Source: a virus. From it: DNA of 64,000 bases. The DNA is taken from IMG/VR virus record IMGVR_UViG_2847502069_000001, positions 5,495 to 69,494 of that record; one strand, written 5' to 3'. Positions 2,861-51,200 of this stretch are shown one piece after another. Below the pieces are notes generated by a model, which made no database searches, was not told the DNA's origin, and worked only from the letters and a program-made list of their open reading frames with translations. A program made the translations under genes and the position numbers. The number at the start of each line of letters is the position of its first letter. Position 1 is the stretch's first letter.

Positions 2861-3709
2861 ATGTCAGAAATAATAAAAGAAAGCCAATTTGAGGGTGTAA
2901 ATTATTATATTATTCTTCCTGCACAAGTACTTCATGATAATAAGTTGACACCACTTGCAAGGCTAATTTATGGGGAATTATCAGCATTAGCCAATATTAA
3001 TGGATATGCATGGATTAGTAATCAGAAACTTGCTGATAAATATGAAGTTTCTTTGCGTACTATCAATAATTCATTATCTGCACTGAAAGATTATGGATAT
3101 ATCAGAACTGAACTTTTTTACAAGGAGAATAGTAAAGAGGTTGAAAGACGTGAAATTTACATTGAACCACATGAAAATAATTTCATGACCCCCATGAAAA
3201 AAATTGCAGGAGGGTCCCGAAATAAAATGCAAGACCCTCATGAAGAAAATTGCAAGACCCCCATGAAAAAAACTGCACAGATAATAACACAATATAATAA
3301 CACATCTAATAACACATCTAATAACACAGTTAATAATTCTAATAATAGTTCTAATAATAATAAAGAAAATCAAAATAAAAATTCTGATGGAAAATTAAAA
3401 AAACTCATCTCGATATTTGAGCAAGAGATGGGAATGATAAGTCCAACAGCAATAAATGAACTTAGAGCTTGGTTATTTGAAGATCACTATGAAGTAGGAC
3501 TTATTAAGTTAGCACTTAGAGAATCTGTATTAAACCGAAAAGTAAACATGAATTATATTAAGGCAATACTTAGAAATTGGCGACAAGAGGGAGTGGCAAC
3601 ACCAAAAATGGTAAAAGATAGGGAAGTAGAACGCTTTTCACCAAATCTTAAAAAGCAGGAAGAATTCTATATTCCTTTAGATGGTCCATGGAATGGAACT
3701 GAGGGGTAA
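2861..3709 (+). CDS. Phage replication initiator (N-terminal HTH, C-terminal DnaD-like domain)
   Basis: LTPLARLIYGEL...SNQKLADKYEVSLRTI HTH; C-terminal FEQEMG...YIKAILRNW DnaD motif; internal iterons. Confidence 0.9.
   Translation: MSEIIKESQFEGVNYYIILPAQVLHDNKLTPLARLIYGELSALANINGYAWISNQKLADKYEVSLRTINNSLSALKDYGYIRTELFYKENSKEVERREIYIEPHENNFMTPMKKIAGGSRNKMQDPHEENCKTPMKKTAQIITQYNNTSNNTSNNTVNNSNNSSNNNKENQNKNSDGKLKKLISIFEQEMGMISPTAINELRAWLFEDHYEVGLIKLALRESVLNRKVNMNYIKAILRNWRQEGVATPKMVKDREVERFSPNLKKQEEFYIPLDGPWNGTEG
3165..3365 (+). repeat. Phage replication origin: iterons plus AT-rich repeats inside the rep gene
   Basis: About 4 imperfect copies of GACCCCCATGAAAAAAA(T/C)TGCA at 3165-3278, followed by AATAACAC/AATAAT repeats. 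Confidence 0.8.
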
Positions 3710-5282: not shown

Positions 5283-5835
5283 AGAAATGAAAAGACCGAT
5301 TAGCAATATCACTCAAGATAGTATCAAGCCTTTACTAAGCAATGCCGTAGAGTTTTATACTAACAAAAATAGGGAAGCTCACAAATGTATTCAAGAACGA
5401 GATGAATATATCAATTATCTTGAAAGTAAACTAAGTAACGCAAAACAACAGCAAGCCCTGCCAGTCGTGCCTGATTTTGTTGCAGAGTGGATTGAATGTG
5501 TAAAAGAAAAAAATAATAATGCGCTAGCTTTACTAGATGATGATAATATGCCAGACGATGTGAATGAGTGGCTTTTCTTTCAAAGAAATGATGACAATAT
5601 CAAATTGATTCTTCGTGCATGGCTAGACGGCTACACAGTCGAAAAACCGCAGCTGTTCTATTTGGTGAATACACTGACAAGACAATATCTGTATCGTAGA
5701 GATAAGGTTAGTTTTGGCGAGCAAGGTTATTGTAAGGACTATGACGATAAACCACTTGCTTACTGTTTATTCACCAAACAAGAAATCGACAGCATGCAAA
5801 CTGGGAGCTATGAACAGATTGAGGTGGAAGAATGA
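5275..5835 (+). CDS. DUF1642-family phage protein
   Basis: LPVVPDFVAEWIE...LRAWLDGYTVEK motif; GGAGG RBS. Confidence 0.8.
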   Translation: MTKEMKRPISNITQDSIKPLLSNAVEFYTNKNREAHKCIQERDEYINYLESKLSNAKQQQALPVVPDFVAEWIECVKEKNNNALALLDDDNMPDDVNEWLFFQRNDDNIKLILRAWLDGYTVEKPQLFYLVNTLTRQYLYRRDKVSFGEQGYCKDYDDKPLAYCLFTKQEIDSMQTGSYEQIEVEE

Positions 5836-6619: not shown

Positions 6620-7290
6620 ATGATTGAGTATGAATGTTATGATTGTCAATCTTCTTTTATGACAATGGATGATGAAATGTATGAAAAATGTCCATTCTGT
6701 GGATGCACCGATTTTTATACTTTAGACGAGGAGGACAACCAATGATTAATATAATTTTATGGGTATTCCTGGTAGGTGATGTTATTGGCGCAGGAATGGT
6801 AATTTATAACATTGGCAAACCAAGAATAATAAAGCCAATAGATGCGAGTATTTATATTGTAGTTGAATTAATAGTATGGATTGCTCTGATTTTGAAATTG
6901 ATAGGAGTTGGATAATGAAACTTTTGTGTAAGCTGTTCGGGCATAAGTGGTCGGAATGGAAAATTTATTTATTTGGCACTCATGAAGAACGCTCTTGTCG
7001 TCGTTGCTACATCAGAGATAAACGAATTCCACGATCAGACCTTGACGAGTCAGAGAACATGTTCGGGGAGGAATGATGTATAAGAAAGCAACAATATTTA
7101 TTATATGTATGATTATTGGAATGGCAATTTATGTTGTTATGGATTACTTCATTCAAAATGCTACACCATTTAGGTGGATTGTTATTATAGCAGCTTCTGC
7201 ATGGTTTGCTTATTCATCAGAATTTGAGGAGAATCACAATGACAGAAGCTGAAAAATGGCTTGATAAACACATGGATTGAACACAAAAAA
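6620..7290 (+). CDS. Run of very small coupled phage ORFs (zinc-ribbon 6620-6745, membrane 6742-6915, DUF1660-like 6915-7076, further small ORFs)
   Basis: Each has an RBS and overlapping start/stop; MKLLCKLFGHKW is a typical lactococcal phage motif. Confidence 0.6.
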
Positions 7291-8083
7291 ACTCCTGCTA
7301 GACAACAAATAGCAAGAGTTAAGTATGAACTGGCCGAGTTCTAATTTAATGTAAAATAAATCCAAAATCTAGATTAATTTGACCAAGATTATTATAGCAC
7401 TATTAACATTATTTTGTCGTTAACAAATGGCAACAAAAAAGTCTCGGTTGGCCAGTCGAGACATGGATAGTTATTTCAAATTCGCTAGTTATATTTTATC
7501 CAATTTTATTATAACACTATTATAAAACAACTATTGTTAACAAAAGATAATATAAAAGCCCGAACTGACCAGGTTCGAGCGAAATTGTGAATTCTAACAT
7601 TTATATTTTTTTGGTCCACTCTAGTATAGCACTAATCAAATTAAAAAGCCCAAGCTGACCAAGCTTGAGCGATTGTTGTAAAAATTATTAGTTACTATTG
7701 AATGGTCACATTCATTATACCACTGATTAATTGATAACTATGAAATTTGATTTATTAAAAAATCTTTAACTATAACAAAAAACCCGAACTGACCAAGTTC
7801 GAGTTATATGTTCTAGGTTTAAATTTTATTCTTAAAATTTAGGTCTACTACATTATACCATAAGAAAAATAAGTTATAACAAAAAAGCTCGAGTTGACCA
7901 AGCTCGAGCGAAATACTGAACAATGTTGCGAAGTTTATTTTTGGTCTTAAATATTATAGCACACAGAACAATAATTTATACCAAAATAAAAAAGCCCGAA
8001 CTGACCAGGCTCGAGTGCAAGAGTTAGTAAACAACTTAGTTCTATTATTATTATAATATTTTTGGTCAGTTATATTATATCAC
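7285..8083 (-). ncRNA. Tandem array of 7 putative small-RNA transcription units
   Basis: Each unit on the minus strand: TGnTATA(A/C)T, 6 nt, GACC (GGTC or GGAT in the two divergent units), AU-rich variable region, GC-rich hairpin, U-run. Confidence 0.8.
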
Positions 8084-8129
8084 ATATACTGAGCTAGGAA
8101 CTCGCTAAACTCAACTGGAGGAATAAATA

Positions 8130-8402
8130 ATGAAAGACAATAAACAAGTATCATTGATTCAAAGAACACTGCTAGAAGTTGCACAATTTAAAAAACATAA
8201 TCTAAATGAATTTTTGATAGGGGAAACGGATTGGTGGTATTCTCCTATCAATGATATTGTAATGGCTATGACTAACGGAGAAAAACCTGATCACTTTAAA
8301 TATGCTGAAGTAGAAACAAACGATTGGCTATGGGTTATGTCAACAATAGACGGAAATCTTGTATTGGAGGGAAAAGGCGGAATAGGAATCGAGGTTGAAT
8401 AG
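8130..8402 (+). CDS. Phage hypothetical protein
   Basis: GGAGG RBS, 90 aa. Confidence 0.75.
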   Translation: MKDNKQVSLIQRTLLEVAQFKKHNLNEFLIGETDWWYSPINDIVMAMTNGEKPDHFKYAEVETNDWLWVMSTIDGNLVLEGKGGIGIEVE

Positions 8403-8652: not shown

Positions 8653-8952
8653 ATGACACAAGAACTGACGAAAGCACAATGGCATGATGTTCGAATGACC
8701 TTAAGAATTATCATTCGTAATAAGAAGAATGCCAAACAATCTCAGCTTATCAATGAAGCATTAGATAATATTAAAGATGAAGATGATCGTAAGATATTCA
8801 AACGTTATTACATTGACGGTTGGGGAATCATTAAGATCACAATGAATATGTATTACTCAAAGACTGCAGTCATTGCTAGAAATAATAAAGCAACGCAACA
8901 GTTTGCTGAGAAATATGACGGTGGTCATTTACTTAAGATGTTCCATGAATAA
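8653..8952 (+). CDS. Late transcriptional activator (RinA/ArpU-like)
   Basis: DRKIFKRYYIDGW...YYSKTAVIARNNKA HTH pattern; last gene before the packaging module. Confidence 0.75.
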   Translation: MTQELTKAQWHDVRMTLRIIIRNKKNAKQSQLINEALDNIKDEDDRKIFKRYYIDGWGIIKITMNMYYSKTAVIARNNKATQQFAEKYDGGHLLKMFHE

Positions 8953-9000
8953 TATAAAGAACGCTACTTTTTCGTAGCGTTTTTGTTTTACGATTGAATC
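8951..9000 (+). promoter_or_regulatory. Putative activator-dependent late promoter, copy 1
   Basis: ACGCTACTTTTT with TTGAAT starting 33 nt after motif start; same geometry at 12560 and 19221. Confidence 0.65.
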
Positions 9001-9300
9001 ATGATAGATGTGAGTACACCAAAGGCAAGACATAGGTTCTATTGCTCAGGAGCTTGGAGACGTATGAGAGAACAGATACTCAAGCGTGATAACAATGAAT
9101 GTCAATGGTGCAAAGCAGAAGGTAGAGTGACAACGGCTAAGACTGCGACACTAGAGATAGATCATATCAAGGAACTCGAGTATCATCCAGAGCTTGCACT
9201 AGAGCCTAGTAACCTTCGTACCTTGTGTCACGACTGCCACAACAAGAGGCACGAGAGACACAGATACAAGCAGTTTGATGATGAAACTTTTGAATTCTGA
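9001..9300 (+). CDS. HNH endonuclease of cos packaging module
   Basis: CQWC...EIDHIKE...NLRTLCHDCHNKRH. Confidence 0.92.
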   Translation: MIDVSTPKARHRFYCSGAWRRMREQILKRDNNECQWCKAEGRVTTAKTATLEIDHIKELEYHPELALEPSNLRTLCHDCHNKRHERHRYKQFDDETFEF

Positions 9301-9441: not shown

Positions 9442-10035
9442 ATGGTAAATAACAAATTGAAGAAAGTCTTAGATGATAAAAAATTGAGTTTTTCAGATTT
9501 GAAAAAGTTGCTTGAAACAAAAGAAATAAAAATAAATAACAGCCAGCTTTCTTTATACTCTAGGGGAAAGAGGAACCCTAAAAATAAAAAAATGTGGATA
9601 GATATCGCTGAAGTTTTGCAAGTTGATTTACAAGAAATAATCACTGATATAAATTATTATTTGTCAATCATGGATGAAATATCTGAAAACGGTACTGAAA
9701 AAAAAGACAAAACTGAAAACGAAAAAACTAACGATTCACTTTTTCAAGAATTGCTCTCTCTTGTTGATAAAAATTCGCCATCTGAATTAGAAAAAGTGTA
9801 CCGATACTGCAGCTTAGCTTCTAACTTTGAAAATTTAAGCAAAGCAATTGATAAGGAAGGAGTGATGATTCTGGTTTCTTCCGGTTAAAATGAGATAAAA
9901 AAACCACACCCTGCTATTGCAGAAAAAGTAAAAGTAAATGCTGCCTTAATTAAGTTAGATGAATTTTTTGAAGAAAAACGAACATCAAAACCTAAAAATA
10001 GTAGCGAAAAAGATTGGAGTAAATTTACGAAGTGA
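9442..10035 (+). pseudogene. terS: Terminase small subunit (HTH + P27-like) with in-frame TAA at 9886-9888
   Basis: Frame continues past TAA as NEIKKPHPAIAEK...DWSKFTK to TGA 10035, overlapping the terL start. Confidence 0.8.
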
Positions 10036-11771
10036 TCGATTACGTTCAAAAGTACATTGACGGTTATTATGCGGGCATGGTCAAATTCAACTATGAACGA
10101 AAATTACTTGTTGATTATATTAAACGTGAGGTAGTGCCTCGTCTTGAATCAGGCGAGGTATTTTTTGACGTTGAACAGATCGAGAATTGCATTGGATATA
10201 CTGAAAAGTATTTCTTTGAATTGGAAGATTTCCAAAAATTCATTATCAGTTTTGTTTTCTTATATTTTTCAGAAAATCATCGGAATGTCTATCGGAAAAT
10301 ATTAATCATGATTGCCAGGGGGAATGGTAAAAATGGATTACTTTCTGCAATAGGAAGTTACTTAACAACCCCTATGCATGGAATCGCTAATTATAATATT
10401 TCAATCGTGGCCAACAGTGAGGACCAAGCAAAAACAAGTTTTGATGAAGTCCACGATACAATTGAGAACCATGAAGAATTAGAAGAATTATTTGGTAAGC
10501 CGCGTAAATCTGAAATCAAGAACTTACAGACAAAATCGCTCTTTAAATTCAGAACTTCAAATGGAAATACTAAGGATGGACTTCGAGATGGGGCGGTTAT
10601 CTTTGATGAAATCCACCAATATGAAAGTAATAAAGATGTAAAAGTACATATTTCTGGACTAGGTAAACGACCTAATCCACGTGAATTTTATATAGGAACT
10701 GATGGTTATGTGCGTGATGGATTTATTGACCAGATGAAAGATATGGCACTAAAAGTTCTTAAAGGCGAAGCGAAATGGAATGCTATGTTTCCATTTATTT
10801 GCAAATTGGATAAGGCAGAACAGGTTGATGACCCTACCCTTTGGGAATTATCAAGTCCTATGTTTTCACTTCCAATGACAGAGTATGCGCAAGGACTTTT
10901 TGAAACAGTTATGGAAGAATATGAGGACTTAGAATTAAATCCTAGCGGACGAGACGAATTCATGACTAAGCGCCAAAATTTCCCAGTGACTGACATCGAA
11001 AGAAGTGTAGCCACCTATGAAGAATTAAAAGCGACTAAAAAAGAATTCCCAGAATTAAGAAATTTACCTACGGTTGGAGGATTTGACTTTGCTTCTACTC
11101 GTGACTTTATTGCAGTCGGTGCTTTGTTTAAGGTTGATGGGGATTATGTTTTTAAATCTCATTCATTTGTTCGTAAAGAATTTGTCGATAGAATATATAG
11201 CTATTCAAAGCCAAATGAAAATGTTAATGGTAAACGACGATTTGCCCCGATTAGACAATGGGAAGATGAGGGGTTGCTCACAGTATTAGATGAACCGTCA
11301 ATGGATGCACAGCACGTTGTAGACTGGTTTATTCGTATGCGTGATGAAGAAGGTTATGAATTCCAAACTATTTGTGGAGACGCCTATAAAATGAGGGAGT
11401 ATTTACAACCTAAATTTGAAGAAGCAGGATTCGAAGTCTCTTGGAATGGAAAATTTGAAGAACCGCTCGGTTACCGTGTGGAAGTTATTCGCAACTTTAG
11501 GGCTATTGATGCGCAATTATCAACCGTAATCGAGGATAGTTTCGCCAATCAAAAAATTAATTTTGGTGATAATGACATGATGCGGTGGTACACAAATAAC
11601 GTGCTTCGACACTTGAAAAAAGATGGAAATGTGGAATATATCAAAAAAGAAGATGTTAGACGAAAAACAGATGGATTTAAAGCTTTTGAAGCAGCAATGT
11701 TTAAGGCTGATTTACTAAATGAAGTAGATTCTACAGATTTTTATGATAATTTGGGTTGGTTTATGGGATAA
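10032..11771 (+). CDS. terL: Terminase large subunit
   Basis: Walker A IARGNGKNG, Walker B IFDEIH, C-terminal KTDG nuclease motif. Confidence 0.96.
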   Translation: MIDYVQKYIDGYYAGMVKFNYERKLLVDYIKREVVPRLESGEVFFDVEQIENCIGYTEKYFFELEDFQKFIISFVFLYFSENHRNVYRKILIMIARGNGKNGLLSAIGSYLTTPMHGIANYNISIVANSEDQAKTSFDEVHDTIENHEELEELFGKPRKSEIKNLQTKSLFKFRTSNGNTKDGLRDGAVIFDEIHQYESNKDVKVHISGLGKRPNPREFYIGTDGYVRDGFIDQMKDMALKVLKGEAKWNAMFPFICKLDKAEQVDDPTLWELSSPMFSLPMTEYAQGLFETVMEEYEDLELNPSGRDEFMTKRQNFPVTDIERSVATYEELKATKKEFPELRNLPTVGGFDFASTRDFIAVGALFKVDGDYVFKSHSFVRKEFVDRIYSYSKPNENVNGKRRFAPIRQWEDEGLLTVLDEPSMDAQHVVDWFIRMRDEEGYEFQTICGDAYKMREYLQPKFEEAGFEVSWNGKFEEPLGYRVEVIRNFRAIDAQLSTVIEDSFANQKINFGDNDMMRWYTNNVLRHLKKDGNVEYIKKEDVRRKTDGFKAFEAAMFKADLLNEVDSTDFYDNLGWFMG

Positions 11772-11774
11772 AAC

Positions 11775-12549
11775 GATACTTTTTGAGAGTAAAAATATTA
11801 GATAATTTACTTATGAAGTTATCAGCGAAAGCAAACAAATAACAATTAGTTCGGTTGGATATACTTCTATTGTTAGTGGCTATTTTACATAGCGAGGGGT
11901 GACAGGCACCAGAACTAAACCTGACTGTAATGTCCGATTTAATGGCGGAATAGCGTTGCTGGACGATAAAACCAGTATAACTTGACAACGGAGTCTTTAC
12001 AACAAACAAGGACTTAATAGTACTAGAGGTTACATCCGCTGTCGGTGACTGCTTGGTCAAGGGGTTAAGATACTGCACTTTTAATGCAGAGGCGTGAGTT
12101 CGAATCTCACTCAGTCACATAAAGTTGGTTATGACAGTAGCCCATCGATTTGAATCCGTAAAAAGTTCTTTGATTGGTAGAATTATTGAACGTCTGTTGT
12201 AGCGAGTGAGTGGTTAAGACTTCGTTAGTAAGGTCGCACCTTACGGCTTAATACGGAACGGTTCAGGGTTCGACTCCCTGACTTGCTATATCCAACATTA
12301 TTTGGGATTGATAATACTAGTACAGTTGCCGAATAATATTAATAAGTCAGTGCGGTTGGAGCTGACAGCAAGAGACAAAAACGACTTCGCTATTAGAAGT
12401 TATAGAGTTCGCGACTCTATCTTGCTATTCGATTGCATTGCTTAATACCGATGCATGTAAAAATATAGTGTGGCGAATGAAGTCCATTAAATGCAGAGAG
12501 GGATGCAGCTATTATATTTTATTACAGGTTGTCCAACGGGCAGCCTTTT
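11775..12549 (+). ncRNA. Candidate large structured RNA or tRNA-like cluster inserted between terL and portal
   Basis: No good + strand ORF; one tRNA, two further stem-plus-T-loop modules, terminator at 12525-12549. Confidence 0.55.
12045..12118 (+). tRNA. Phage tRNA-Lys (anticodon TTT), slightly atypical
   Basis: GTGACTG/CAGTCAC acceptor pairing, D-arm GTC-AAGGGGTTAA-GAT, anticodon arm CTGCA-CTTTTAA-TGCAG, T-arm GTGAG-TTCGAAT-CTCAC; no encoded CCA. Confidence 0.75.
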
Positions 12550-12550
12550 A

Positions 12551-12600
12551 TTTATAAAAACGCTACTTTTTCGCTCTACTTTTCCATTAAACTTGAATTA
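12551..12600 (+). promoter_or_regulatory. Putative late promoter, copy 2 (before portal)
   Basis: ACGCTACTTTTT at 12560, TTGAAT at 12593. Confidence 0.6.
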
Positions 12601-12621
12601 AAAGTACGGAAAGGAGAAAAT

Positions 12622-13815
12622 GTGGGACTATTTTCAGACATTTGGTCATCTGTAAAAGATAAATTAAGTGCAACCGATTTAACTGGGTATGACGCATTAT
12701 TTAATGCACAAGTCACGCTTGGTATTAAGAATGCTGCTTTAGAATCTTGTGTTTCTTACTTAGCAAGAACTGTTTCTAAAGGTAAATTTGTATTTAAGAA
12801 TGAAAGCTCGATTACAGATTCTAAATTTGATTATGCTTTAAATATGAGACCGAATCCTAACCAGACAGCTAGTGAATTCAAAGTTTCAATGATAAAAAAG
12901 CTGGTAAATGGTGAGTTATTAGTTATACAGGATGATGATCAGTTCTATATTGCTGATAATTTTGTAACAAACTATTCGCTTGACGGGAACACATACACGG
13001 GAGTGACAGTTAACTTCTCCAATAGCAAAGTTTCTAATGCTCCTAATTCTGGACCATACGCTCAAAAATATTTTAATAGAACCTTTATTCAAGGAGTAGA
13101 TTGTTTTCACTTAGATAATGACAATATTGGTATAAAAAAATATGTTGATAGTCTATGGGATGATTATGGGAAATTATTCGGAATCTTAATTGCCAATCAG
13201 CTCCGTGTAGGGCAAGTTAGAGCAAAAATTAGCATTCCTGTTACTAGTAAGATTGATGATAATGAAAGAATAAAATTACAGCAACAATATGCAACAACCT
13301 TATATGAAAAAATGATGAATGATCCTATTGTCTTTATTCCTGCAGACGATAAAGCAAAGTCTTCGTATGATGAAATTTCTTCTAGCAAGTCCGCAACACT
13401 TCAAAATCAGATTACTGACTTTTGGTCTTTAAAAAAAGTTTTTATTGGAGAAGCAGCAGGGTTGCTTGGAATTCCTCCGGCACTAGTGCTTGGAGAAACT
13501 GCTAATAATTCTGAAAACTTGGATTTAGCAATTGAATCTGCAGTGATTCCATTAGGGAACAAATTATCAGAAGGATTTGCAAGTATTTTAATTAAAAAAT
13601 CAGGATATTCAGTTGGTAATACCCTACAAATGACTGGATTTAAAACAATTAACATCCTTGACCGTGCAGATGCAATTGATAAAGTTGGTTCAAGTGGTGT
13701 GGTTAAAGTAAATGAAGTCCGTGAGGCTTCTAATTTACCTCCAATTCCTGATGGAGATAGATTCATTATGACAAAAAATTATCAAAAGGAAGGAGTACCT
13801 AGTGAAAACTCTTAA
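12622..13815 (+). CDS. Portal protein (HK97 family)
   Basis: AAGGAG RBS then GTG 12622; RPNPNQTASEF and VNEVREASNLPPIPDGD motifs. Confidence 0.93.
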   Translation: MGLFSDIWSSVKDKLSATDLTGYDALFNAQVTLGIKNAALESCVSYLARTVSKGKFVFKNESSITDSKFDYALNMRPNPNQTASEFKVSMIKKLVNGELLVIQDDDQFYIADNFVTNYSLDGNTYTGVTVNFSNSKVSNAPNSGPYAQKYFNRTFIQGVDCFHLDNDNIGIKKYVDSLWDDYGKLFGILIANQLRVGQVRAKISIPVTSKIDDNERIKLQQQYATTLYEKMMNDPIVFIPADDKAKSSYDEISSSKSATLQNQITDFWSLKKVFIGEAAGLLGIPPALVLGETANNSENLDLAIESAVIPLGNKLSEGFASILIKKSGYSVGNTLQMTGFKTINILDRADAIDKVGSSGVVKVNEVREASNLPPIPDGDRFIMTKNYQKEGVPSENS

Positions 13816-14620
13816 TTTACACGGACCTGTTATTGACTCAGATGACTCTTGGTTTTATGATCTTCTAGAAATAGAAAATATTAACGCTAAGTCAGTTGAA
13901 GAATTTTTAGATGAAGCGAACGGTGAAGATATCAAACTATCAATTGATTCAGGCGGGGGTTCGGTACGTACAGGAAGTTCAATCTATACTTTATTGATGA
14001 ACTACCAAGGAAAAATTACTGCAGAGGTAACAGGGCTTTGCGCATCTATTGCTAGTGTCATTATGTTGGCCGCTGAACACATTGCAGTATCTCCGGCAGC
14101 GACTATTGTTATTCATAATGTTTGGTCAGTTAATCAAGGCGATTATCGCGATATGGCTAAACAATCTGATGTATTGAAAGAAATGAGTTCTAGCATTGCT
14201 AAAATGTACGCTAAAAGAATGGGATGTACATTGGAAGAAGCGCAAGCAGCAATGGATGAAGAAACTTATTATTCTGCAGATCAGGCAGTAGAGGCAGGAA
14301 TTGCAGATGAAAAATCATTCGAAGTAGTAAAAACACCCCTTCAAATGATGGCATCAATGGACCAGGCTTTCTCCAGCGATAAAATTGCCAAGCTCAAAAA
14401 CTTTATGAAGGCTCAAATTAAAAATGAAACTAATAATTCGCAAGAATTCAAGTTGGATTCAGAACAATATCAAGGAATAACAGATCGTTTAGATCAACTT
14501 ATTTCTTTTGAAAGTGAAGAACCAAATGAAGAACCAGTAGCAAAAAAATCTAATAACTCGGCAGACAAGCCACTTAAAAATCAAAAATTTAAACCACTTT
14601 TCCTAGGAGGAATTAAATAA
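13802..14620 (+). CDS. ClpP-like prohead protease
   Basis: IDSGGGSV, GLCASIASV, IVIHNVW, DEETYYSADQAVEAGIAD. Confidence 0.93.
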   Translation: MKTLNLHGPVIDSDDSWFYDLLEIENINAKSVEEFLDEANGEDIKLSIDSGGGSVRTGSSIYTLLMNYQGKITAEVTGLCASIASVIMLAAEHIAVSPAATIVIHNVWSVNQGDYRDMAKQSDVLKEMSSSIAKMYAKRMGCTLEEAQAAMDEETYYSADQAVEAGIADEKSFEVVKTPLQMMASMDQAFSSDKIAKLKNFMKAQIKNETNNSQEFKLDSEQYQGITDRLDQLISFESEEPNEEPVAKKSNNSADKPLKNQKFKPLFLGGIK

Positions 14621-15765
14621 TGGACTACACAAAATTACCTAATTACGAAGCAGCTGTAGGAAAATATACAGATGCAGTTGCTAACGGAGCCGATGAAAAA
14701 GAACAACAAAAATTATTTGCACAGTCTATGGAAGTCATGGGTACTGAAATTGTTGAAAAACTTGCTGATCAAACAAACGAAAAAATTAACTCTCTAATGT
14801 CATCTCGTTCTGCTGAAGTAATGTCAGCAGAAGAAACAAAATTCTTTAACGAAATTACTTCTGGTGTTGGAAATGTAGAGAAAACCTTGCCTCTTGAAAT
14901 TATCAATCAAGTTTTTGACGAATTGACTTATGCTCATCCGTTGCTTGATATTATCAATTTCCAAGATATGGGACTTCGTACAAAAGCGATTACTTCTGAT
15001 GGAGTCTATGACGGCGGATTAGCAGTATGGGGTACATTCACTGGTGATATCCAGGGTAAGTTGAACCAAAACTTCGGGGAACATGATTTTTCTCAAAATA
15101 AACTTACTGCATTTACTGTTATCCCTAAAGATGCTCTTGACTATAGTTATGATTGGTTGAAAACATTTATTGTCTTACAATTATCAGAATCAATTGCAGT
15201 TGCTCTCGAAACAGCTTTAGTACTTGGAGATGGGAATAACAAACCTGTTGGTTTAATCAAGGATGCTACAGTTGTAAATGGAACTACTACATATGGGGAT
15301 AAAACAGTATCAGCCGACCTTTCTCAACTTTCTACCCTAGACGGTTCTAAAGAAGTTTCTAAACAGGCTGCAAAAATTCTTGCTCCAGTTATGAAAAAAT
15401 TATCAATTAGCGAAAAAGGCATTCCTCTCAATATTGCTGGACAAGCAAAAATTTTGGTTAATCCTCAAGATTATTACAATTTCACTGCGATGTTCTTATA
15501 TTTGAATGCAAATGGAGCATGGGTTGATATCTTACCTTTCAATATTTCTGTAATTCAATCAATGGCTGTTCCTGCTGGTAAAGGAATTGTATTTGTCGCA
15601 AATCGATACAATGCTTATCGCGGAAAAATGACAATGCAAGAATTTGACCAAACGTTTGCTCTTGAAGATCTTCAACTTTATACTACCAAATCATTCTATT
15701 GGGGCAAACCAAAAGATAATAATGCTTCAGCCCTTGTTACAATTGCGGCCGTACCTGCTGGGTAA
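14620..15765 (+). CDS. Major capsid protein (HK97 fold)
   Basis: Position, size and GDGNNKPVGL motif. Confidence 0.92.
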   Translation: MDYTKLPNYEAAVGKYTDAVANGADEKEQQKLFAQSMEVMGTEIVEKLADQTNEKINSLMSSRSAEVMSAEETKFFNEITSGVGNVEKTLPLEIINQVFDELTYAHPLLDIINFQDMGLRTKAITSDGVYDGGLAVWGTFTGDIQGKLNQNFGEHDFSQNKLTAFTVIPKDALDYSYDWLKTFIVLQLSESIAVALETALVLGDGNNKPVGLIKDATVVNGTTTYGDKTVSADLSQLSTLDGSKEVSKQAAKILAPVMKKLSISEKGIPLNIAGQAKILVNPQDYYNFTAMFLYLNANGAWVDILPFNISVIQSMAVPAGKGIVFVANRYNAYRGKMTMQEFDQTFALEDLQLYTTKSFYWGKPKDNNASALVTIAAVPAG

Positions 15766-30815: not shown

Positions 30816-30876
30816 GGTTCTTTAGCTCAGTTGGTAGCTAACCGTTCGGTCGCTGGTTCGAGTCCAGCAAGAACCA
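30816..30876 (+). tRNA. tRNA remnant lacking an anticodon arm
   Basis: GGTTCTT acceptor, TAGCTCAGTTGGTAG D-arm, GCTGG-TTCGAGT-CCAGC T-arm, AAGAACCA 3' end; only 61 nt. Confidence 0.7.
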
Positions 30877-50666: not shown

Positions 50667-51200
50667 TGCCGTGTGAAGATTTCTATTATGATTAATTAAA
50701 ATTAAAAGTGTAGTGTGCTACTAAATGAAAACACTATAGGTGTACTTGTGGTTGAATGAGATGACACTACAGCCTACACTTTATTACAGGATATGTGGTA
50801 CTTATAAGACTCTAGTCTTATAAGGGTGGTTCGATTCCTCAGATACCCATTGGGTTACAACCTCCTAGATAACCCAAGACTCCTTGTCACTAGTCTTGCC
50901 AAACTGGTGGCTATTAATGTTTCGCTCTATTAATGTTTTGTAGTAATGCTTGGTAGCTTTCGTTATGGTTCGATTCCATAAATTATTCTTGGATTTAATT
51001 ATCCAAAAGAAATTCTTTTACTCTCTACAATTTTCCTCTGTAGCTGTTGATGGTTCACAAGTAAGAGTTCGATTCTCTTTGCAGTTATTGGTTGATATAT
51101 ATTGACCAAAGTTTTTCTCTTTCACTTCTCTACTCTTTAAAGGCTGAGAGTTCTATGTTCGTTCATTCGTTCATGATTCTCTTGTGCTTTTTTATTTTGT
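50667..51200 (+). ncRNA. Non-coding region with several hairpins and three tRNA T-loop modules
   Basis: GGTTCGATTCC at 50828, TTATGG-TTCGATT-CCATAA at 50963, AGAG-TTCGATT-CTCT at 51064; 10-bp stem at 50801-50824. Confidence 0.5.

Follow-up and report, generated by a model that had tools for sequence, protein, structure and literature searches.

A probable array of small tRNA-type cassettes in the late operon of a Lactococcus P335-type prophage

The window analyzed here, a 64,000-nucleotide stretch of DNA (positions 5,495 to 69,494 of IMG/VR record IMGVR_UViG_2847502069_000001; coordinates are window positions unless another sequence is named), is a Lactococcus P335-type prophage. Between its terL gene (10032-11771, with Pfam TerL_ATPase and TerL_nuclease matches) and its portal gene (12622-13815, GTG start, Pfam Phage_portal) lies a gap of about 850 nt with no credible open reading frame (ORF). 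The gap contains, on the + strand, a lysine tRNA gene, tRNA-Lys(UUU), two tRNA-like modules (hereafter, modules 2 and 3), and a terminator. We consider that this gap is probably a small array of tRNA-type genes in the late operon, built by recombination, which would serve tRNA-like processing and the supply of a lysine tRNA. All four elements had been named in a preliminary description of the region and each was recovered here, including the closing stems and T arms of both modules, which can be read directly in the sequence. The same description regarded the separation of terL from portal as unusual. The non-coding gap stands, but the split is not peculiar to the element, given that the cassettes of relatives lie mostly in the late leader between alt and terS. 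A minus-strand ORF (11761-12078) that overlaps the tRNA and has no Pfam match was taken as spurious.

The gap had also been viewed as a single structured RNA block of about 770 nt, resembling the giant GOLLD or ROOL RNAs and carrying an embedded tRNA; its size, Lactobacillales prophage setting, and tRNA association favored this view, which no tool supported. The comparison with Rfam that had been suggested (cmscan) returned no match to GOLLD, ROOL, or any other large RNA, either in the window at gathering scores or in positions 11600-12750 at E<=10. The whole-block fold was no better than that of shuffled sequence (z = -1.58), the fold of the 5' 270 nt was not significant (z = -0.83), and a two-sequence consensus fold was also unconvincing. 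Using blastn against 50,697 phage records, we found that 94 Lactococcus phage records, all of P335-type phages, share pieces of the block, and none of these 94 covers 80% of it. The pieces (a leader fragment A, a hairpin B, tRNA-Lys, the T-arm half of module 2, module 3, and a segment F) are differently distributed, and they occur singly and in other orders among the relatives. In addition, RNA reads from a relative (described below) show cutting to small species. Given the separate pieces, the lack of an Rfam match, and the weak whole-block fold, we reject the giant-RNA reading, which these data contradict and which we now regard as practically untenable. In place of one structured RNA, the terL-portal block is a mosaic that recombination has pieced together from independent cassettes.

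The tRNA-Lys(UUU) gene (12045-12119, + strand, anticodon 12080-12082) was called as Lys(ttt) by ARAGORN and matched the Rfam tRNA family RF00005 with 52 bits (gathering score 29), with a cloverleaf and a 7-nt anticodon loop. Its acceptor stem has 7 bp (12045-12051 with 12112-12118) that lie 2 bp farther out than in a canonical tRNA, accompanied by a linker of 4 nt and, at 12111, a U without a partner; Rfam marks pairs 6 and 7 of the canonical 7-bp acceptor as non-pairs. The gene is present in 12 phage records. Host Lactococcus genomes contain three copies of a canonical tRNA-Lys(UUU) with the anticodon stem UUUGA/UCAAA, whereas the phage gene, while keeping the host anticodon loop CUUUUAA, differs in its acceptor and D arms and has an anticodon stem of its own (CUGCA/UGCAG), as previously remarked. 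In a divergent homologue (L177), the acceptor and anticodon stems are kept through changes on both sides, which indicates that the tRNA is under structural selection. The differing anticodon stem is of interest because in E. coli tRNA-Lys the anticodon stem is where the PARIS nuclease AriB cleaves (between positions 40 and 41), one swapped stem pair renders tRNA-Lys resistant to AriB, and phage T5 escapes PARIS by means of its own tRNA-Lys (PMC11464382). An active PARIS system is known from lactococcal plasmids (PMC11381338, PMC13064643). Together with this literature, the stem sequence makes it plausible that the phage tRNA-Lys bypasses an anticodon nuclease such as PARIS.

Module 2 (12200-12288, + strand) is the long form of a family of mini tRNA-like elements whose layout comprises an acceptor stem, a variable center, and a T arm. 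It has the acceptor UAGCGAGU/ACUUGCUA, the T arm CAGGG-UUCGACU-CCCUG at 12264-12280, and a discriminator A at 12288, and its inner parts consist of a weak D-like arm, a hairpin (GUAAG-GUCGCAC-CUUAC), and an unpaired stretch. There was no Rfam tRNA match at E<=10, and ARAGORN reported the module, its D stem mismatched, only once the threshold had been lowered; the copy in phage TP901-1 was called at the default threshold. The 5' part that precedes the T arm and 3' acceptor strand of module 2 differs between phages; many relatives retain only a 3' remnant, and the Tuc2009 copy is reduced to a plain hairpin. A hand alignment of 11 forms revealed compensatory changes in three of the five T-stem pairs. 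Using R2, a covariance model of the acceptor and T arm (57.8 bits for module 2), we obtained matches in 16 of 151 Streptococcaceae species genomes. The new matches have compensated acceptors (e.g., UAGCUAA/UUAGUUA, UAGCCAG/CUGGCUG, UAGCCUG/CAGGCUG, and UGACGAG/CUCGUUG) and T stems that are also new. Family members measure 45-89 nt when elements returned whole by the pattern search are considered, and 41-87 nt among the R2 model hits. In an alignment of 30 distinct sequences, which was fitted to the model, 93% of pair positions were standard and the T stem was 100% paired; 10 of the 13 pairs change on both sides, and the observed values were reached in none of 500 shuffles. The covariation outside the tRNA that had been called for is present. 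The inner pairs covary beside invariant first pairs of the acceptor and an invariant tail. As in t-elements, an acceptor-like stem stacked on a T arm is compensatorily kept in modules 2 and 3 and in the family at large. The frequent G-U pairs fit an RNA that is read from the + strand; these pairs, together with compensatory changes on one strand, also led us to drop a reading of the region as an att, pac, or cos DNA site.

None of 25 mini forms was called a tRNA by ARAGORN, and Rfam contains no family for them, with a sub-threshold match to mascRNA as the sole echo. The elements lie in prophages, on the coding strand and at operon borders (5-6 nt past an endolysin gene, or downstream of either terL or an alt-like gene), and about 10 of 26 are followed by a terminator-like hairpin within 60 nt. 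R2 gave no new matches in 150 Lactobacillales species genomes (E<=0.001), a result that does not by itself show absence.

Elsewhere in the window, two other places hold tRNA-like sequences. An ORF-free stretch outside the prophage core (50820-51095) includes three T-arm-bearing mini tRNA-likes, with weak R2 matches at 50938-50989 and 51038-51091, the second of which has a fully paired acceptor (UAGCUGU/UGCAGUUA). A 61-nt tRNA-like sequence with acceptor, D, and T arms and almost no anticodon arm (30816-30876; Rfam tRNA, 37.8 bits) is located about 1.2 kb past the last large ORFs of the prophage late region, and may be an attachment-site remnant or a further mini tRNA.

Module 3 (12367-12427, + strand) is a D-armless tRNA-like structure. 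A 7-bp acceptor (AGCAAGA/UCUUGCU, 12367-12373 with 12420-12426) is followed by 9 nt of single strand in place of the D arm, a 6-bp hairpin (12383-12401), one base, and a T arm with a 5-bp stem (UAGAG-UUCGCGA-CUCUA, 12403-12419), and the discriminator is A 12427. Folded alone, the module has a z-score of -3.5, and conservation is sharply bounded at its two borders. Across 15 variants, none of the 18 pairs is lost; the changes recorded are one compensatory substitution and three switches into or out of G-U. The hairpin loop varies (GCUAUUA, GCUAAUA, and GUUAUCG), so that the module, which has no D arm, also lacks the conserved anticodon loop with U33 expected of a tRNA. Given that this loop is not conserved, a decoding role is unlikely. 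The T loop varies as well (UUCGCGA, UUCGAGC, and UUCGUGG). Module 3 occurs in 24 phage records, and Lactococcus is the sole genus in which it was found. A search with the model R1 gave matches in only 2 of 151 Streptococcaceae genomes; a scan of genome contigs with its 15-base core yielded only chance hits among the matches listed.

Evidence that module 3 is processed comes from three raw stranded RNA-seq runs, which were mapped to the leader of a homologous, t712-like prophage (L015:2600-4464). The reads covered one strand only (L015 3356-3544), with none beyond 3545. Thirteen reads (5 in one run and 8 in another) end at L015 3533, the discriminator A of module 3, and continue with CCA and then the read-1 adapter, at a place where the genome has TTA. 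Molecule starts pile up at L015:3395, the first base past the discriminator A (3394) of a module-2 remnant. In the run that contributed eight of the CCA-bearing reads, a 151-nt read typically has 12 nt clipped from its end and aligns over about 139 nt (3395-3533), which gives an RNA species of 142 nt including CCA. The spacer that corresponds to window positions 12289-12366 forms the 5' leader of this RNA. A minus-strand RNA that starts near a TATAAT box was ruled out as the source of the reads, both by the extra bases (CCA where the genome has TTA) and by the coincidence of the two ends with tRNA-like borders on the + strand. Module 3 therefore undergoes in vivo 3' processing past its discriminator and CCA addition on the homologous prophage. 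RNA ends at tRNA-like borders, with CCA at the 3' end, are a further property of t-elements, seen here on the homologue, and they agree with the earlier idea of fragments cut by RNase P and RNase Z. A search of sequencing runs with the window's own sequence returned only assembled contigs, of uncertain kind.

The L015 prophage, which lacks the tRNA-Lys, has a feature of its own. An IS21-family element (IstA, IstB; L015:1232-3313) is inserted exactly at its late promoter, and the end of this element contributes a TTGACA box that lies 18 nt upstream of a TATCAT box. Such an IS-derived hybrid promoter would explain the low constitutive transcription of the leader in these reads.

Comparisons with relatives indicate where the cassettes are at home. 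In most of them, the cassettes occupy the leader that separates alt, the late activator gene, from terS; P335, Tuc2009, and PLgT-1 are examples. The TP901-1 stretch that matches window positions 12044-12560 is likewise situated between alt (ORF29) and terS, and contains the same tRNA-Lys, module 2, module 3, and hairpin F. For TP901-1 (L001:2501-2575, TP901-1 13133-13207), ARAGORN finds tRNA-Lys(UUU) and a second tRNA-like gene in this alt-terS region, neither of which is annotated in the record. Brondsted and colleagues are said to have described, in 2001, an Alt-dependent late promoter of TP901-1 in the region of this alt-terS stretch, the start site of which we take to be 13073. Unlike in the TP901-1 late leader, the cassettes of the window are located between terL and portal and have no activator-site part of the promoter. 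In phage D7138, whose terL resembles that of the window, the terL-portal gap holds only tRNA-Lys and F. In other relatives, the place between module 3 and F that the window fills with a spacer is taken by tRNA-Met(CAU) or tRNA-Pro(UGG). The varied tRNA content and the truncations make the site a hot spot for the gain, loss, and truncation of tRNA-type cassettes. As a separate observation, the D7138 tRNA-Lys (L002:2605-2679) has C and not U at position 39, which breaks the pair that closes the anticodon loop.

Among the remaining pieces of the block, segment A (11813-11869, + strand) shares homology with the P335-type late-operon leader over its first ~55 nt, beginning at the TATGAAGT box; it was found in many phage loci (blastn piece q42-98) and aligns to TP901-1, L180, and L244, but the upstream activator-site part of the TP901-1 promoter is missing. 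Directly 3' of it, the 5' end of the tRNA-Lys gene appears to be repeated in a short copy (GTGGCTA, 11876-11884, + strand), and an insertion of about 160 nt comes between this copy and the full tRNA; in LT985571.1 (L244), the tRNA adjoins segment A directly. The inserted sequence includes the segment B hairpin (CUGG-ACGAUAAAA-CCAG, 11951-11979, + strand, stem 11959-11962 with 11972-11975; blastn piece q180-208), which is conserved in L173. Between modules 2 and 3, the spacer at 12289-12366 (+ strand) is common to many P335 phages (blastn piece q494-658, 92-96% identity). An extra spacer after module 3 (12430-12507, + strand) is absent from most relatives; its first half is common to P335 and Tuc2009, and the final 40 nt (12468-12507) find a match in another Streptococcaceae genome (L178), in the leader of a tRNA-Trp gene.

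The array ends at segment F (~12508-12556, + strand), in which a terminator scan identified a terminator-like hairpin (12526-12546) followed by a T run (blastn piece q737-781, 91-98% identity). In most relatives, F lies directly 3' of the last tRNA-like module and is closely followed by the first late gene's ribosome-binding site. A late-promoter-like box (ACGCTACTTTTT, 21 nt, TTGAAT) has three exact matches in the window, at 8961, 12560, and 19221, where none is expected by chance. Copy 1 follows an activator-like gene (8653-8952), and copies 2 and 3 come after inserts that end in terminators. All three are candidate activator-dependent late promoters. Copy 2 (12560-12598, + strand), between the terminator and the portal start, would fit a self-contained insert that ends at F, after which portal expression is restarted. 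The other genes around the block are those for an HNH endonuclease (9001-9300) and terS (9442-9888) upstream, and for a ClpP-type protease (13802-14620) and the capsid (14620-15765) beyond portal. Further upstream, before the activator-like gene, about 850 nt without ORFs (7280-8130) hold at least six spaced hairpins of the type GCCCGAAC-TGACCA-GGTTCGAGC, each followed about 40-60 nt on by a box such as TATAGCAC or TATACCAC; this array resembles small transcription units or terminators.

Based on these results, the account that we favor as the probable one is that recombination assembled the array in the terL-portal gap out of cassettes that most relatives carry in the alt-terS leader. Read-through from terL would then transcribe, in order, the leader fragment, tRNA-Lys(UUU), module 2, the spacer, and the D-armless module 3, before transcription meets the terminator and the duplicated late-promoter-like box restarts portal expression. 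The tRNA-like borders would be the sites at which the tRNA-maturation enzymes of the host cleave this transcript, and the products would receive their tails from the CCA-adding enzyme; cutting and tailing were seen for module 3 on the homologous prophage and would extend to the window by homology. The tRNA-Lys most likely supplies a lysine tRNA with a non-host anticodon stem, by which translation could survive a defence that cuts tRNA-Lys. By analogy with plant mitochondrial t-elements, the mini modules are most likely tRNA-like processing signals that would set the RNA ends of late transcripts and free small stable RNAs.

Several points weigh against this account. Many relatives keep just the 3' remnant of module 2, which is accordingly dispensable, and the family covariation covers the acceptor and T arm, not the inner arms of the long form. 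Part of that covariation could derive from descent from differing ancestral tRNAs and not from selection on the mini form, and the pair counts carry the fitting of their alignment to the model. The CCA evidence consists of 13 reads from a homologue, and the module 3 of that prophage and the module 3 of the window share about 93% identity. No RNA end in the L015 data falls at the first base of module 3, where RNase P would be expected to cut, with the mature RNA of about 65 nt perhaps lost to library size selection, and the L015 leader appears to be driven by the promoter made by the IS21 insertion, so that these reads do not represent normal late expression. Lastly, the tRNA-Lys has an odd acceptor geometry and occurs in only 12 phage records, and its aminoacylation and defence role are putative.

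Among the rival explanations, the modules might be decaying remnants of phage tRNA genes that have no present function and are still recognized by host enzymes. The traffic of tRNA genes at this site (Lys, Met, Pro, and a Trp leader), the reduction of module 2 in many phages and to a plain hairpin in Tuc2009, and the unconserved loop of the middle hairpin of module 3 would all be expected of decay. The compensated pairs and the fully paired T stem of the family, the crisp borders of module 3, and the recurrence of the family at operon borders in distant Streptococcaceae prophages are not, and we consider decay unlikely. If the CCA-tailed mini tRNAs are instead the functional product, they may serve as decoys or sponges that draw off host defence toxins directed at the acceptor ends or T arms of tRNAs, such as AbiE-type nucleotidyltransferases. 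The in vivo CCA tail, the constant first acceptor pairs and tail beside covarying inner pairs, and the neighboring tRNA-Lys, itself a candidate for counter-defence, are in keeping with this idea, as is the thought that AbiE-type toxins add nucleotides to tRNAs, with AbiE listed as inactive on P335 phages (PMC13064643). However, the AbiE link is a correlation with many other possible causes, and the element is dispensable in many P335 phages, which makes this role very doubtful. A broader version, in which Streptococcaceae phages carry hitherto undescribed CCA-tailed mini tRNAs of acceptor and T arm as functional RNAs (e.g., toxin decoys) in a modular counter-defence cassette of the late operon, together with replacement tRNAs such as tRNA-Lys, strikes us as quite unlikely.

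Module 3 and hairpin F could also act together in cis on read-through into the late genes, as an attenuator or as an antiterminator RNA of the put kind. In most phages, module 3 directly precedes the terminator-like hairpin before the first late gene, and inside its closing stem it consists of two hairpins one base apart, an arrangement that presumably recalls the put RNAs of phage HK022. Cutting at the discriminator and CCA tailing are, however, tRNA-like behavior, the promoter-like box past the terminator in the window suggests termination and not read-through, and most phages with F lack module 3 (24 records, compared to about 94 that share pieces of the region). Control in cis is therefore highly improbable.

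What is new in these results is the covarying Streptococcaceae family of mini tRNA-like elements, together with CCA-tailed ends seen at the level of individual reads. By the searches made here, the late leaders of the model dairy phages TP901-1, Tuc2009, BK5-T, and P335 hold tRNA-Lys and tRNA-like genes that are unannotated in their records, and the R2 covariance model could serve to annotate the mini family. If the tRNA-Lys does protect against defences that cut tRNA-Lys, such as PARIS, this would bear on which starter-culture defences stop which P335 phages. The mini modules suggest that host tRNA-maturation enzymes act on the late transcripts of Gram-positive phages, a principle known from plant mitochondrial t-elements.

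Compared to known systems, the terL-portal region shares with GOLLD and ROOL only the Lactobacillales prophage setting and a nearby tRNA, and differs in having neither a model match nor a single conserved architecture and in being processed into small pieces. The mini family resembles the tRNA-like domain of tmRNA in combining an acceptor with a T arm in the absence of an anticodon arm, and the T arm of module 2 gave a weak local tmRNA match (E = 0.05), but the lactococcal members have no G3-U70 pair, tag reading frame, or pseudoknots, and ARAGORN reported no tmRNA. Similar to the T5 gene, the phage tRNA-Lys(UUU) combines a host-matching anticodon loop with a differing stem, the region that AriB recognizes and cuts in E. 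coli. Unlike T5, the host is Gram-positive, the phage is temperate with a single tRNA compared to 23 in T5, and the acceptor is displaced by 2 bp; a bypass of PARIS in Lactococcus is putative, as is tRNA-Lys as the target of the lactococcal system. The released RNA is CCA-tailed like mascRNA, which is cut from MALAT1. The closest likeness in principle is to plant mitochondrial t-elements and tRNA punctuation, in which embedded acceptor and T-arm structures mark the cut sites of tRNA-processing enzymes (PMC1920247). In contrast to both mascRNA and t-elements, the structures described here belong to a bacterial virus, have a family-specific conserved acceptor start and tail, and were observed to be cut on the 3' side.
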